Shown here: piece after piece, positions 929-4,131 of the stretch | Layout of the letters: every line of letters begins with the position of its first letter | Numbering within the stretch: position 1 is the stretch's first letter | DNA from: a virus | Taxonomy: Duplodnaviria > Heunggongvirae > Uroviricota > Caudoviricetes | DNA: 4,131 bases | Virus record (IMG/VR): IMGVR_UViG_2671180770_000018 | Strand: one strand, 5' to 3' | Notes under the pieces: model-generated | Seen by the model: only the letters and a program-made list of their open reading frames with translations | Database searches by the model: none | What the model was told of the DNA's origin: nothing | Program-made: the position numbers and the translations under genes

Positions 929-1369
929 ACCCCGCTATTGAGCCTCCTTCACAGTGATGCTGAATAACATAACTCAATGATATATCGATAAAATAATCTC
1001 TACATTTGAAAATGCACGGTAATTCTGAAATGCAAAAAATCAACCAAACCAGCGCAATGCCTGAAAAAACTGACGTTCACTGGAGTGGTCGGTTTAGCGT
1101 TGCACCAATGCTCGATAGGATGTACCGTTTTTGAAAAACAAGTAGTTATACACTTTGTGGGAGCCTATTGGGAACCTGTTATTCTTAGAAAGCATCATTT
1201 GCTCATCACTTCAATTGACCATGGTTAAAGCCAGCTATAAACTTGACAAACGAGGTAACTGGTTGCTTAGGCCCAAGTGGGCACACCATAAGAAGCTCAT
1301 GTTGGTGATGAAGCAACCCATGAAGTATCGAGAATAATTATAAAGTTCACTATCTTTGAGGTTTCTTAT

Positions 1370-1942
1370 ATGTTTTGCGAAGAAAAAGTAGCTCAAATGG
1401 CTGCATACCTACTTCTTAAGAGAGGTGGGCGCATGGCATATCTGAAATTGATGAAGCTGCTCTATCTGTCTAACCGCCAGTCGATTTTGAAGCATGGCAG
1501 GATGATCGGCGAAGATAGCCTTTACTCTATGAAATTTGGACCAGTCATGTCGAATACGCTGAACTTGATTCGCGGTAAGGCTGAAGGCATTGGTGACTAC
1601 TGGTACAACTTGATAGAGACGAACGGGCATAATGTATCGTTGCGTTCAGATCCGAGGGAAATGGATGCAGACGAGGTCTTTGATGAATTGAGTCGTGCAG
1701 ATATCCGGATTTTAGATGAAATCTATTCTCGGTATGGGCATATGAACCGATTTGATCTCGCAAATATGACGCATTTAGAAAGCGTTTGTCCAGAGTGGCA
1801 CGATCCTGGCAATTCTCGTAAGCCTATAGACCTGAAAGAAATGCTGATCAGTGAGGGTAAAAGCGAGGATGAGGCTAATCGCATAATTGGCAAAATGGAA
1901 GAATCTCAGAAACTTAAGGAATTTTCTTTGCAATTATCATGA
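1370..1942 (+). CDS. Panacea-domain (DUF4065; GepA/SocA/PanA-like) protein, putative antitoxin
   Basis: ATG at 1370 with GAGG at 1358-1361 and an 8-nt spacer; 190 aa. The N-terminal two thirds carry what I recognise as the Panacea/DUF4065 hallmark: LKLMKLLYLSNRQSILKHGRMIGEDSLYSMKFGPVMSNTL, then YWYNLIE, then HLESVCPEWHD. The C-terminal 35 residues are an acidic, probably helical tail. The TGA stop at 1940-1942 overlaps the next ATG (ATGA). Confidence 0.85.
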   Translation: MFCEEKVAQMAAYLLLKRGGRMAYLKLMKLLYLSNRQSILKHGRMIGEDSLYSMKFGPVMSNTLNLIRGKAEGIGDYWYNLIETNGHNVSLRSDPREMDADEVFDELSRADIRILDEIYSRYGHMNRFDLANMTHLESVCPEWHDPGNSRKPIDLKEMLISEGKSEDEANRIIGKMEESQKLKEFSLQLS

Positions 1943-2358
1943 CGGATTATCAGCCATACAGGAAAGGAACTGTGCTTGCCCCAACTGGACCATGCAATCA
2001 TCTTCATGTGATTTGTAATGATCCTGTTTATTACCCCGTTAACGATTGTTATTGTGTTTTAGTTGTTAATATTTCTAGTATCAAGGATGGTGTCCCCCAC
2101 GATCCGTCTTGCGTCTTGAATTCTGGTGATCATCGCTTTATCAAGCATCCAAGTTATGTTGTTTACGCTGAAGCTATAATTTGGCGAGTGGATAACATGG
2201 TTAGAAAGCAGCGATCGGGTGAGATTTCTGTTCATGATGATATGCCAGAAGCTACATTCAATAGAATTCTGGACGGTTTTGATATCTCTGATGAAGTTAC
2301 GCCAAAGAACCTTAAATTTAAAAATAAATATTGCGTATCATCTATTGATGATGAGTAA
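1939..2358 (+). CDS. Hypothetical protein translationally coupled to the Panacea gene; candidate toxin/effector with possible MazF/PemK-like fold
   Basis: ATG at 1939-1941 overlaps the upstream stop by 4 nt and has no Shine-Dalgarno of its own (nearest AAGGA is at 1916-1920, too far), which implies coupled translation; 139 aa, TAA at 2356-2358. By-eye similarity to MazF/PemK/Kid toxins: KGTVLAP near the N-terminus, CYCVLVVNISS (cf. MazF CLCVPCTTQ), VLNSGDH (cf. VVLSGQER), AIIWRVDN (cf. SIAWRARG), MPEATFNRILDGF (cf. APEELQLIKAKI). The N-terminal half is also rich in Cys/His. The fold assignment is unverified. Confidence 0.7.
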   Translation: MTDYQPYRKGTVLAPTGPCNHLHVICNDPVYYPVNDCYCVLVVNISSIKDGVPHDPSCVLNSGDHRFIKHPSYVVYAEAIIWRVDNMVRKQRSGEISVHDDMPEATFNRILDGFDISDEVTPKNLKFKNKYCVSSIDDE

Positions 2359-2397
2359 ACAACAGGAATTGTTTCGGTATAACTTCTGGAGTTTTCT

Positions 2398-2571
2398 ATG
2401 GAAGATCAAAAAGCAACCAAGCCACAGGTTAAGTTCGACACAATGAAAGCATTCGTAGGTATGGGTGCTGCTGTTGAAGTTCTGATGAAGGCTGCTCCTA
2501 ATGCGTTCACTCACGCTACTGTCTCTGGTAAAGAGCAGCAGGGTAAGCTTCGTCGTCTCAAAGCAGCATGA
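2398..2571 (+). CDS. Small hypothetical protein (57 aa), below the ORF track cutoff
   Basis: ATG at 2398 preceded by GGAG at 2388-2391 with a 6-nt spacer; open frame to TGA at 2569-2571. Translation: MEDQKATKPQVKFDTMKAFVGMGAAVEVLMKAAPNAFTHATVSGKEQQGKLRRLKAA. Codon choice (ggt, gct, cgt, ctg, aaa) looks like an expressed enterobacterial gene. A strong terminator begins 20 nt after the stop. The overlapping track ORF 2219-2446 is in another frame and lacks these signals. Confidence 0.5.
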   Translation: MEDQKATKPQVKFDTMKAFVGMGAAVEVLMKAAPNAFTHATVSGKEQQGKLRRLKAA

Positions 2572-2590
2572 TCATAGCTGGTGCTTTTTG

Positions 2591-2619
2591 AAAACCCGCC
2601 TTCAGGCGGGTTTTTTCTT
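2591..2619 (+). terminator. Rho-independent terminator, plus-strand oriented, possibly weakly bidirectional
   Basis: aaaacccgcc (2591-2600), loop ttca, ggcgggtttt (2605-2614): a perfect 10-bp stem with a GC-rich core, followed on the plus strand by a T-tract (ttttttcttt, 2611-2620). On the minus strand the hairpin is followed by caaaaag, so termination of the minus-strand operon here should be inefficient. Confidence 0.8.
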
Positions 2620-2900
2620 TAGTGATTTTCTTTGCCCTTCTGTTTGACTGTTCTGACCTGTTCCCACTCGATACGTCCTTCTTCTCGCCTTTTGTCTATG
2701 TATTCCGCAAGATCCTGAATATTGATGCAACGTTTTGCTTTTTGTGATGTGCCGATGCGATATGTTGGAACGGGCAACTTACAAGCGTTTGCTTTTGCTT
2801 CTGCCGTGGCTGGACTCATACCAAAGTACTTTTGGCTAACTGCTGAGAGTTCAATGTTTGGGGTATTGAATTCAGCCATCAGTAAAAACAAGGTGTTCAT
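2619..2900 (-). CDS. PrtN-family small DNA-binding protein (pyocin-activator-like; excisionase-like in enterobacterial prophages)
   Basis: The track ORF is 2619-2927, but the most plausible start is the third in-frame ATG at 2900-2898, which has GGAG (2910-2907) and a 6-nt spacer. The product then begins MNTLFLLMAEF and contains IQDLAEYIDKRREEG, both of which I recognise as PrtN-family features. TAA stop at 2621-2619. Confidence 0.7.
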   Translation of the reverse strand: MNTLFLLMAEFNTPNIELSAVSQKYFGMSPATAEAKANACKLPVPTYRIGTSQKAKRCINIQDLAEYIDKRREEGRIEWEQVRTVKQKGKENH

Positions 2901-2936
2901 AATTTTCTCCATCAAAACCGGCTGCACCCGGGAAAA

Positions 2937-3509
2937 TCATAATTCTGTGCTGGTGGCAGGAATTAATTTCTGCCAGATAGCGGAAACATATTTTGCCTGA
3001 TGACGGGCATCAGCCAGGGCGTTGTGCCGTTCGCCATCGAAAGGCATGTCCATTTTGGGGTCGAATCCGATGGAACGCCCAAGCGTAACGATCGTGCGTA
3101 CATCGTGGTCATTCCAGTATGCCCACGGGCAGATTTGTCCTGCTCGCTCATAAGCTCCACGTAAAATTACGTTGTCGAAGGTGGCTCCGTTACCCCAGAC
3201 TTTTAAATATTTCGTATTGTCTGCGTGCCGGTTAATGAAATGATTTAGTTCTGAGAGAGCATCGCTGATCGACAAAGTATCATCAATACAGATTGCAGCT
3301 CGTGCTTCAGGGCTTTGTTTCAACCACCACAGGATGGTATCGCCGTCAGGTGTAGCTCCTTGCTCCATAGCACTTTCCAGGCTAACAACCGTATAGAATT
3401 CTTGTCCGATGTCTCCGATTTCTGGAGTGAAGAACACCGCGCCAATGGAAACGATCGGTGCATCCTTATTTTTCCCCATCGTCTCAAGGTCGATCATTAA
3501 GTTGTTCAT
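2937..3509 (-). CDS. DnaQ-like DEDDh 3'-5' exonuclease (phage-type)
   Basis: The track ORF starts at a GTG at 3512, but the adjacent ATG at 3509-3507 has a strong Shine-Dalgarno, GGAGGTG (3521-3515), with a 5-nt spacer. The 190-aa product shows three exonuclease motifs: IDLET (Exo I, D and E), WGNGATFDN (Exo II, D) and HNALADA (Exo III, H and D). The start shares one nucleotide with the upstream stop (TGATG). Confidence 0.85.
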   Translation of the reverse strand: MNNLMIDLETMGKNKDAPIVSIGAVFFTPEIGDIGQEFYTVVSLESAMEQGATPDGDTILWWLKQSPEARAAICIDDTLSISDALSELNHFINRHADNTKYLKVWGNGATFDNVILRGAYERAGQICPWAYWNDHDVRTIVTLGRSIGFDPKMDMPFDGERHNALADARHQAKYVSAIWQKLIPATSTEL

Positions 3510-4075
3510 CACTTCACCTCCAGCGGCGGTTCCGGTAGCGGCATCCAGTGAGTTGCTTGCTCAATACCATTACCCGGCTTAATCGTTGCATCTCCGCGCC
3601 GAAAGGTGCTTCCGGTATAGCGTGCGGAGCATATTAGCGGTTCAACCTGAGAGCTATCGAAATTCACCGAAATAAGCACGTTCTGGCCCTTTTCAGGCAT
3701 TCGATCACTACAGCTTATCCAACTATCCGGAGTTCCCGGAGAGTTGCCATTTACATCGAAGTTTGGCTCTGCGTCCTGAACTAGGAGGATGTAACCATTT
3801 TTGGCTGTATCAAGTTCTAACGCCTCGGTGACGGTACCGAAATAGCGATTACCTAAATCAACATCACAAGTGCTTACATCAATGGAAACTTCCATGCCTT
3901 CGATTAATTCTGGCAAGTTGTAAGTTTGGCTTACAGGCTCTGCTTCCAGCGATACCAGTGCAATTCGTGCCAGTTCTTCCGCTTCTTCTGCTGGCAGTAC
4001 AACGTTGCTGCCAGGTCCGTATGTTTCGCGCCACTGCTGGATTGTCAGCAGTCGCCCTTTGGTAATAGTGATCAT
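3509..4075 (-). CDS. Phage DUF551-like protein
   Basis: ATG at 4075-4073 with GAAGGA about 8 nt upstream on the minus strand; 188 aa. The C-terminus reads ATHWMPLPEPPLEVK, which matches my memory of the conserved DUF551 C-terminal motif. The TGA stop at 3511-3509 overlaps the exonuclease ATG. Confidence 0.75.
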   Translation of the reverse strand: MITITKGRLLTIQQWRETYGPGSNVVLPAEEAEELARIALVSLEAEPVSQTYNLPELIEGMEVSIDVSTCDVDLGNRYFGTVTEALELDTAKNGYILLVQDAEPNFDVNGNSPGTPDSWISCSDRMPEKGQNVLISVNFDSSQVEPLICSARYTGSTFRRGDATIKPGNGIEQATHWMPLPEPPLEVK

Positions 4076-4131
4076 GCCGCGTTTCCTTCTTTCTTATTAA
4101 CAATCACACCGTCATATATTTCATTAAGGTG
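4072..4131 (-). CDS. 3' end of an upstream minus-strand gene, truncated by the window edge
   Basis: The minus-strand frame entering from 4131 is open for 19 codons (HLNEIYDGVIVNKKEGNAA) and ends at a TGA (4074-4072) that overlaps the DUF551 ATG in an ATGA arrangement. Only 60 nt are visible, so this is weak. Confidence 0.3.
   Translation of the reverse strand, partial: HLNEIYDGVIVNKKEGNAA

Follow-up and report, generated by a model that had tools for sequence, protein, structure and literature searches.

The panA-panT gene pair

The locus discussed here lies in a window of 4,131 nucleotides (the whole stretch of DNA that was analysed) from the virus record IMGVR_UViG_2671180770_000018 of IMG/VR. 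The window contains Escherichia coli chromosome and integrated phage DNA, with a 5' fragment of dusA at the junction. Its central element is a pair of genes, panA and panT, which very probably constitutes a functional or recently functional type II toxin-antitoxin (TA) cassette at 1370-2358, of the PanAT kind and within toxin cluster T6 of Kurata et al. 2022 (PNAS, PMC8832971). The cassette is made up of the following features, with lengths given in nucleotides (nt) or amino acids (aa).

1177..1369, plus strand: cassette-specific upstream region with a candidate promoter and the panA Shine-Dalgarno sequence
1370..1942, plus strand: panA, 190-aa stand-alone Panacea-domain antitoxin (Pfam PF13274)
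1939..1942, plus strand: ATGA start/stop overlap, read from the sequence, for predicted translational coupling of panT to panA
1939..2358, plus strand: panT, predicted 139-aa toxin of Kurata cluster T6 with a MazF/Kid/CcdB fold

The original prediction, made from the DNA letters alone, had read the first gene as coding for a Panacea protein, and a Pfam search bears this out. The 190-aa product matches SocA_Panacea (PF13274) with 70.9 bits against a cut-off of 25.7 (E 2.2e-19), its residues 27-137 covering profile positions 1-109 of 113, and the same domain is present in all 120 PanA homologues listed, of 215. An AlphaFold model (mean predicted local distance difference test, pLDDT, 93) places a Panacea core at about residues 1-137, followed by a C-terminal helical extension with helices at 155-161 and 166-189, the last one long; an additional N-terminal domain is absent from the protein. 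A Shine-Dalgarno motif, GAGG at 1358-1361, can be read from the sequence 8 nt upstream of panA. The candidate promoter (TTGACC at 1215-1220, a spacing of 17 nt, TAAACT at 1238-1243) scores no better than shuffled controls, and conservation of the region 1177-1369 with PanAT cassettes of other contexts was not found. A 14-bp near-palindrome over the candidate -35 element (1215-1228) was considered as an operator and dropped, a rough estimate placing it at chance level in 300 nt.

The start codon of panT, ATG at 1939-1941, overlaps the panA stop codon TGA at 1940-1942 (-4 nt). As had been claimed for this open reading frame (ORF), a ribosome-binding site of its own is missing: no Shine-Dalgarno sequence lies in reach, the nearest purine-rich motif being AAGGA at 1916-1920, which at 18 nt is too distant. 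Annotations of the toxin differ in where it begins. The phage GenBank record uses ATG 1939; RefSeq/PGAP uses GTG 1972, which gives a protein of 128 aa (WP_014640052.1), and 128-aa entries are also found in the databases. The N-terminus MTxYxPYRKGT is kept among PanT homologues, and with a start at GTG 1972 the protein loses 11 conserved residues. The Shine-Dalgarno-like AGGAAAGGA ahead of that GTG consists of codons of the conserved R-K-G. Because these N-terminal residues are conserved and other genera have the ATGA junction too, the comparison indicates that ATG 1939 is the correct start of panT and that the RefSeq/PGAP start is wrong.

Both proteins are conserved down to about 43% identity in Pseudomonas, and panA and panT are, as judged from their sequences, real genes. 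A protein cluster at 90% identity holds the 190-aa PanA and the 139-aa PanT together with a 232-aa member; this sharing is most likely a clustering artefact from differently called or extended ORFs.

Conservation of the pair as a two-gene unit

The gene order at this locus recurs widely. We scanned one genome per species and obtained 19 loci with a toxin relative, 18 of which were evaluable. The adjacency of homologues in other genomes, on which the original prediction depended, was found throughout: a PanA homologue lies directly upstream of the toxin in 18/18 evaluable genome loci and in 15/15 evaluable divergent viral contigs. The taxonomic reach of these 33 loci, all with the pair, extends from Enterobacterales to Methylococcales and Beggiatoa; the same upstream PanA is seen in Proteus, Shewanella, Enterobacter and Pseudomonas neighbourhoods. 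Of 17 genome loci most show the ATGA junction, as do all 15 viral loci, and the similarity scores of PanA and PanT co-vary across loci (Spearman 0.87, n = 15).

The surroundings of the pair vary from host to host. Among PanAT cassettes of different contexts nucleotide homology is confined to about 1355-2336. In Enterobacter the pair stands between lambda-type tail genes as a tail-gene moron, in Proteus at a prophage end beyond the tail-fibre genes, and in Shewanella in an integrase island between the integrase and AlpA; it also occurs outside phages, in chromosomal islands. Taken at the level of gene order and homology, panA-panT evidently travels as a unit between unrelated contexts. With a -4 nt overlap, the pair present in 33/33 evaluable loci and flanks that vary, the locus agrees with what Kurata et al. 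2022 set out for the gene pairing of a PanAT locus.

In one Proteus prophage PanAT adjoins an Abi_2 (PF07751) gene (locus L025 of our set, 3657-4721), and in Pseudomonas idahonensis it adjoins a Phd/ParE pair (L189, 2744-3272). Both look like small defence or TA islands.

Membership of cluster T6 and relation to other systems

Both the definition of Panacea antitoxins and the clustering of their partner toxins come from Kurata et al. 2022 (PNAS, PMC8832971). In the accessible part of their Dataset S1 the rows of cluster T6 include the toxin WP_101821906.1 of Yersiniaceae bacterium 2016Iso4, further rows from Pantoea septica LMG 5345, Proteus vulgaris, Pluralibacter gergoviae, Methyloprofundus and Beggiatoa, and many others from Spirochaetes to Cyanobacteria. 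The antitoxin precedes the toxin throughout these rows, and the overlaps are mostly -1, -4 or -8 nt. WP_101821906.1 is the toxin of one of the loci in our own set (L008) and shares 55-57% identity with the 139-aa protein, and another locus (L009) comes from the listed P. septica LMG 5345; the Enterobacterales T6 members in the accessible rows are 55-87% identical to the window toxin. By homology to these listed members the window toxin belongs to T6. The original prediction left it open whether this pairing was already on record. Since WP_101821906.1 sits in the T6 list and resembles the 139-aa protein, it was: as far as the accessible dataset reaches, the pairing is known as T6 of Kurata et al. 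2022 (PMC8832971), with one member validated.

That member, the T6 representative, comes from Pseudomonas moraviensis (PanA WP_083354365.1, PanT WP_083201923.1). Its toxin has no CDD hit and resembles EndoA/PemK/MazF in HHpred; it is toxic in E. coli, and PanA both rescues the cells and co-purifies with it. It inhibits 35S-Met incorporation specifically, which points to protein synthesis and not to replication or transcription, and RNA cleavage by the T6 toxin is called only likely. PanAT pairs are classed as type II, and the T6 representative forms a stable PanA:PanT complex (PMC8832971). The nearest pair to it that was found, from P. idahonensis, is 42% identical to the window pair for PanA and 43% for PanT (E 1e-32). 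Its PanA begins with MIFSEQKVAQ, the decapeptide quoted for the P. moraviensis PanA (PMC8832971), and between its PanA and toxin genes there is an overlap of 1 nt, in agreement with the dataset.

The resemblance to T6 PanAT extends to layout. In both cases a stand-alone ('noNTD') Panacea antitoxin comes first and is followed by a toxin of about 130-140 aa with a MazF-like fold and without a CDD or Pfam hit, and the start/stop overlap is 1 or 4 nt. Unlike the P. moraviensis pair, which is marked 'NotPhage' in the accessible dataset, the window pair is phage-borne and occupies the cargo slot of a dusA-integrating phage, and the E. coli pair is not among the accessible T6 rows (PMC8832971). It is a phage-borne E. 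coli member of an established PanAT kind and not a new kind of system.

Similarly, MazEF, Kis-Kid (PemIK) and CcdAB share with the window pair an antitoxin gene in first place, translational coupling and a small toxin, and MazF resembles the T6 homologue in phenotype, namely inhibition of translation. In contrast to these systems, the window toxin has no detectable PF02452 sequence similarity, and its antitoxin is a globular Panacea protein, whereas theirs are AbrB or ribbon-helix-helix (RHH) DNA binders with a disordered tail. Another validated pair, the PanAT of Shiga toxin-producing E. coli (STEC) O31 (WP_000287252.1/WP_000019185.1, cluster T3), likewise combines a Panacea antitoxin with a downstream toxin (PMC8832971), but its toxin is a small membrane-depolarising peptide, unrelated to the 139-aa protein in sequence and fold.

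SocAB of Caulobacter, a type VI TA system, provides a different model for how PanA could act. Its antitoxin has the same PF13274 domain, the Pfam entry is named after SocA, and many database records read 'SocA family protein'. PanA might then be a proteolytic adaptor that delivers the toxin to ClpXP and does not block it directly. We consider this very improbable: the window PanA scores 14.4 bits against a cut-off of 190 for the NCBIfam SocA equivalog NF047745, its partner has a MazF-type fold, unlike SocB as described, and neutralisation in the T6 representative takes the form of a stable PanA:PanT complex in a family classed as type II (PMC8832971).

Fold and conserved residues of PanT

For the second gene the original prediction had spoken of a toxin-like protein and pointed to toxin families. 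No such family was matched. Searches of Pfam, NCBIfam and PADLOC with the 139-aa protein returned nothing significant, only noise (ICMT and DapC fragments), and the protein does not match PF02452 (PemK_toxin) at E <= 1; its likeness to toxins is one of fold. The sole family match is phrog_19071, to which no function is assigned. In a full HMMER scan the family comprised 2954 clusters at 50% identity with E <= 1e-3, 1165 of them with E <= 1e-10. It is thus large, unannotated and without a Pfam model.

The modelled structure of PanT is predicted to be an SH3-like barrel of the MazF/Kid/CcdB type, and the top fold matches are ribonuclease (RNase) toxins, not CcdB. Relative to MazF it shows an additional C-terminal helical segment (104-131) and a long, ordered and confidently modelled loop (48-71) that is not present in MazF and that holds D55, C58 and H65. 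Among 127 diverse representatives H21, D55, C58, H65, F67, S72, Y76, G113 and S117 are 93-99% conserved; G63 is conserved at 91%, and 126/128 sequences have Ser or Thr at position 47.

In E. coli MazF the catalytic residues R29 and T52 stand at the start of strand 2 and at the end of strand 3. A greedy local alignment of PanT with MazF, co-linear but non-significant and taken as a hint only, sets H21 opposite H28, beside R29, and S46/S47 opposite T52/T53, with no Arg in that place. A His apparently occupies the position of the catalytic Arg, and an RNase-like site with His replacing Arg is plausible. The composition His21/Asp55/Cys58/His65/Ser72/Tyr76 would also suit a metal site or thiol/imidazole catalysis.

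These residues bear on what the toxin does. The 139-aa protein might be an effector of the MazF/CcdB fold that acts on a different target or by a different chemistry, for instance as a CcdB-like gyrase poison or an H21/D55/C58/H65 metal or thiol enzyme, or else a lytic-cycle factor that PanA merely regulates. Its family lacks sequence similarity to MazF/PemK, the near-invariant H21, D55, C58, H65, S72 and Y76 of the 127 members differ from the MazF catalytic set, and Kurata et al. (PMC8832971) called RNA cleavage by T6 only likely, all of which would fit such an effector. We nevertheless regard it as improbable. The T6 homologue inhibited translation specifically (PMC8832971), the best fold matches are RNase toxins and not CcdB, and the pair also occurs in chromosomal islands, outside phages. 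In the non-significant alignment, moreover, the invariant His lies beside the Arg29 position of MazF, and Ser46 and the Ser/Thr at 47 fall on Thr52/Thr53.

A further proposal starts from the same residues. Because PanT carries a set of its own, His21/Asp55/Cys58/His65/Ser72/Tyr76, on a MazF-like barrel, its chemistry is possibly new. T6 PanT would then not be an ordinary MazF-type RNase but a toxin with a new target or chemistry, and the pair at this locus would be an abortive-infection switch whose Panacea protein senses incoming phage. Taken as a whole we hold this proposal to be unlikely.

A swappable cargo slot and the 57-aa ORF

The pair had been described as cargo of a prophage, and comparison with phages confirms this. 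Escherichia phage Lys8385Vzw is 99% identical to window positions 1009-4131; the block 1340-2620 is 100% identical to this phage and 99.4% identical to phage SKA5. Phage mEp460 has 1009-1176 (89%) and 2385-3937 (98%) in common with the window but not 1177-2384, and between the two common segments it holds gp23, a gene product of about 177 aa (L003, 3284-3817). Because the flanks are common to mEp460 and an alternative gene lies between them, the swappable slot is 1177-2384, that is panA, panT and the upstream region only. Other E. coli strains carry the alternative allele, WP_000956557.1 (L031, 2281-2814), at this dusA site too, so that the slot has two alleles, panAT or the 177-aa gene. WP_000956557.1 has no match in Pfam, NCBIfam or PADLOC; a role in defence or exclusion is possible for it as well. 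From these alignments panAT appears as optional cargo of a lambdoid prophage that integrates at dusA, in a slot flanked by attP and xis.

Downstream of the slot lie two features of the phage backbone.

2398..2571, plus strand: 57-aa ORF (ORF57; phrog_2741, E 1e-34), phage backbone, function not assigned, with its own Shine-Dalgarno GGAG at 2388-2391 and 6-nt spacing
2590..2615, no strand assigned: intrinsic terminator hairpin, backbone, with an 11-bp G+C-rich stem and a T-run 3'

Both elements had been recognised correctly in the original prediction, including the strength of the terminator (-19.3 kcal/mol, z = -3.5). The hairpin, flanked by an A-run 5' and a T-run 3', stands 3 nt from the xis stop codon; it may terminate both convergent transcription units. 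An Rfam search gave only sub-threshold matches, caused by the terminator. The ORF57 frame is intact in 16/16 alleles, and the 15 variable sites are without third-position bias, the alleles being too little diverged for such a test. With an intact frame, a good Shine-Dalgarno sequence and a PHROG family, ORF57 is a putative coding sequence.

The original prediction had proposed a module of two or three genes. Two genes stand, as the pair in 33/33 loci attests; the third does not. A module of PanA, the 139-aa protein and ORF57 as a chaperone, regulator or accessory would account for three co-directional, tightly spaced ORFs with a single terminator after ORF57, and accessory third genes do occur in a minority of PanAT loci (Kurata et al., PMC8832971). 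We give this arrangement almost no credence. A homologue of ORF57 was found in 0/33 other PanAT loci (0/18 genome, 0/15 viral), and ORF57 has its own Shine-Dalgarno sequence, while the homology between cassettes of different contexts stops at about 2336. ORF57 and the terminator are 97-98% identical in mEp460 and in E. coli prophages where the 177-aa gene replaces panAT. Of 80 viral contigs with ORF57, 60 have panAT and 20 the alternative gene, and among 5426 complete E. coli genomes the ORF57 segment is present in 562 and panAT in 208, where it is always chromosomal. ORF57 thus occurs without the pair and is not conserved beside it, unlike the third gene of a tripartite toxin-antitoxin-accessory system. 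The distribution places ORF57 and the terminator in the phage backbone, outside the PanAT module.

Proposed mechanism and role in the lysogen

The analysis establishes the identity of the genes, the toxin fold, the conserved coupling, the boundaries of the cassette and its family membership. Toxicity, rescue, complex formation and inhibition of translation are expected here by analogy with the T6 homologue (about 43% identity); RNA cleavage, the contact surface on PanA and the trigger are what we infer beyond that. On this basis panA would make a stand-alone Panacea antitoxin, and panT would be translated by termination-reinitiation at the ATGA, which would ensure that toxin is made only alongside antitoxin. 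The MazF/Kid-type barrel of PanT would block protein synthesis, as its homology to the P. moraviensis T6 toxin suggests, most probably by cutting RNA. PanA would neutralise PanT by direct binding, with contacts through the Panacea core or the long C-terminal helix, and loss or displacement of PanA would free the toxin. In this context, the NetFlax study (PMC10440598) reported that stand-alone Panacea antitoxins neutralise directly and proposed Panacea as a sensor.

Several observations weigh against reading 1370-2358 as a working PanAT cassette with a MazF-like toxin. In the screen of Kurata et al. (PMC8832971) 8/25 candidate PanTs were non-toxic to E. coli and rescue failed for 5, and family membership is therefore no guarantee of activity. 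The link to the validated P. moraviensis pair runs via the listed T6 members and the P. idahonensis pair. The three RefSeq accessions of this locus are named in no searchable paper, nor in the accessible parts of the Kurata and NetFlax supplements. PanA, PanT and ORF57 have no match in PADLOC-DB 2.0.0 at E <= 1, and no promoter with statistical support was found for the cassette when the candidate was compared with shuffled controls. The connection to MazF is one of fold only: 0/103 diverse relatives match PemK or CcdB (Pfam) at E <= 1, and profile searches of the toxin family over PDB sequences returned no MazF and nothing relevant. An hhalign comparison of the PanT family with five MazF/Kid/ChpBK/EndoA sequences gave a probability of 0.3%, and one with E. 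coli MazF alone was not significant. In the non-significant pairwise alignment the catalytic Arg29 of MazF appears to be replaced, with the invariant His21 adjacent, and the invariant D55, C58 and H65 are without a MazF counterpart. The chemistry of PanT may therefore differ from that of MazF.

What the cassette does for the lysogen can be stated more tentatively. It could serve in defence against superinfection by other phages or in retention of the prophage; this role is suggested because the cassette sits in a variable cargo slot and has neighbours such as Abi_2 elsewhere, and we consider it possible, if somewhat short of an even chance. Nothing later was found in the literature on Panacea systems and phage defence, or on a T6 pair against phages.

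The main value of these results is for annotation. Among complete E. coli genomes about 4% have the pair (208/5426), and in 25/25 inspected records of the 208 genomes the toxin is labelled 'hypothetical protein'; the tie to a validated TA family supplies a testable function. Worth keeping are the corrected start codon, the exact boundaries of cassette and slot, and the conserved His/Asp/Cys/His set, which on a MazF scaffold offers a lead towards the chemistry of T6 toxins. Current understanding is not overturned.

Prophage setting

The remaining features of the window belong to the chromosome, the attachment site and the early-left operon of the phage.

43-648: DUF2713 gene yjbM (Pfam E 1e-115)
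1006..1134, plus strand: dusA 5' fragment at the prophage attachment site, annotated as partial tRNA-dihydrouridine synthase, translation MQKINQTSAMPEKTDVHWSGRFSVAPMLD
2619..2927, minus strand: PrtN/AlpA-type excisionase gene (xis), first gene of the early-left operon (PF11112, E 4e-23; phrog_1300, E 8e-40)
2937-3512, minus strand: 3'-5' exonuclease, early-left operon
3509-4075, minus strand: DUF551 protein, early-left operon

The cassette had been placed convergent to a prophage early operon in AT-rich DNA. This description is accurate, with xis, the exonuclease and the DUF551 gene on the minus strand and a G+C content of 37-44% over 1200-2550. When the phage is circular, int is followed by attP with a dusA-like 5' segment, then by panA, panT and the 57-aa ORF on one strand and finally by the convergent early-left operon. 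The left prophage boundary falls within about 1009-1116, the phage genome matching the window from 1009 on.

Some minor observations concern this arrangement. The dusA-like 5' segment beside attP is carried by the phage itself (window 1006-1176; L002, 5662-5830). While int and xis are at opposite ends of the prophage, in the circular phage attP and the cargo slot lie between them. Early-left transcripts reading through the terminator would be antisense to ORF57 and panAT. On the chromosomal side, yjbM has an in-frame stop at codon 14 (in the frame from base 1), and PGAP annotates it as a frameshifted pseudogene, both here and in other strains with a dusA prophage.

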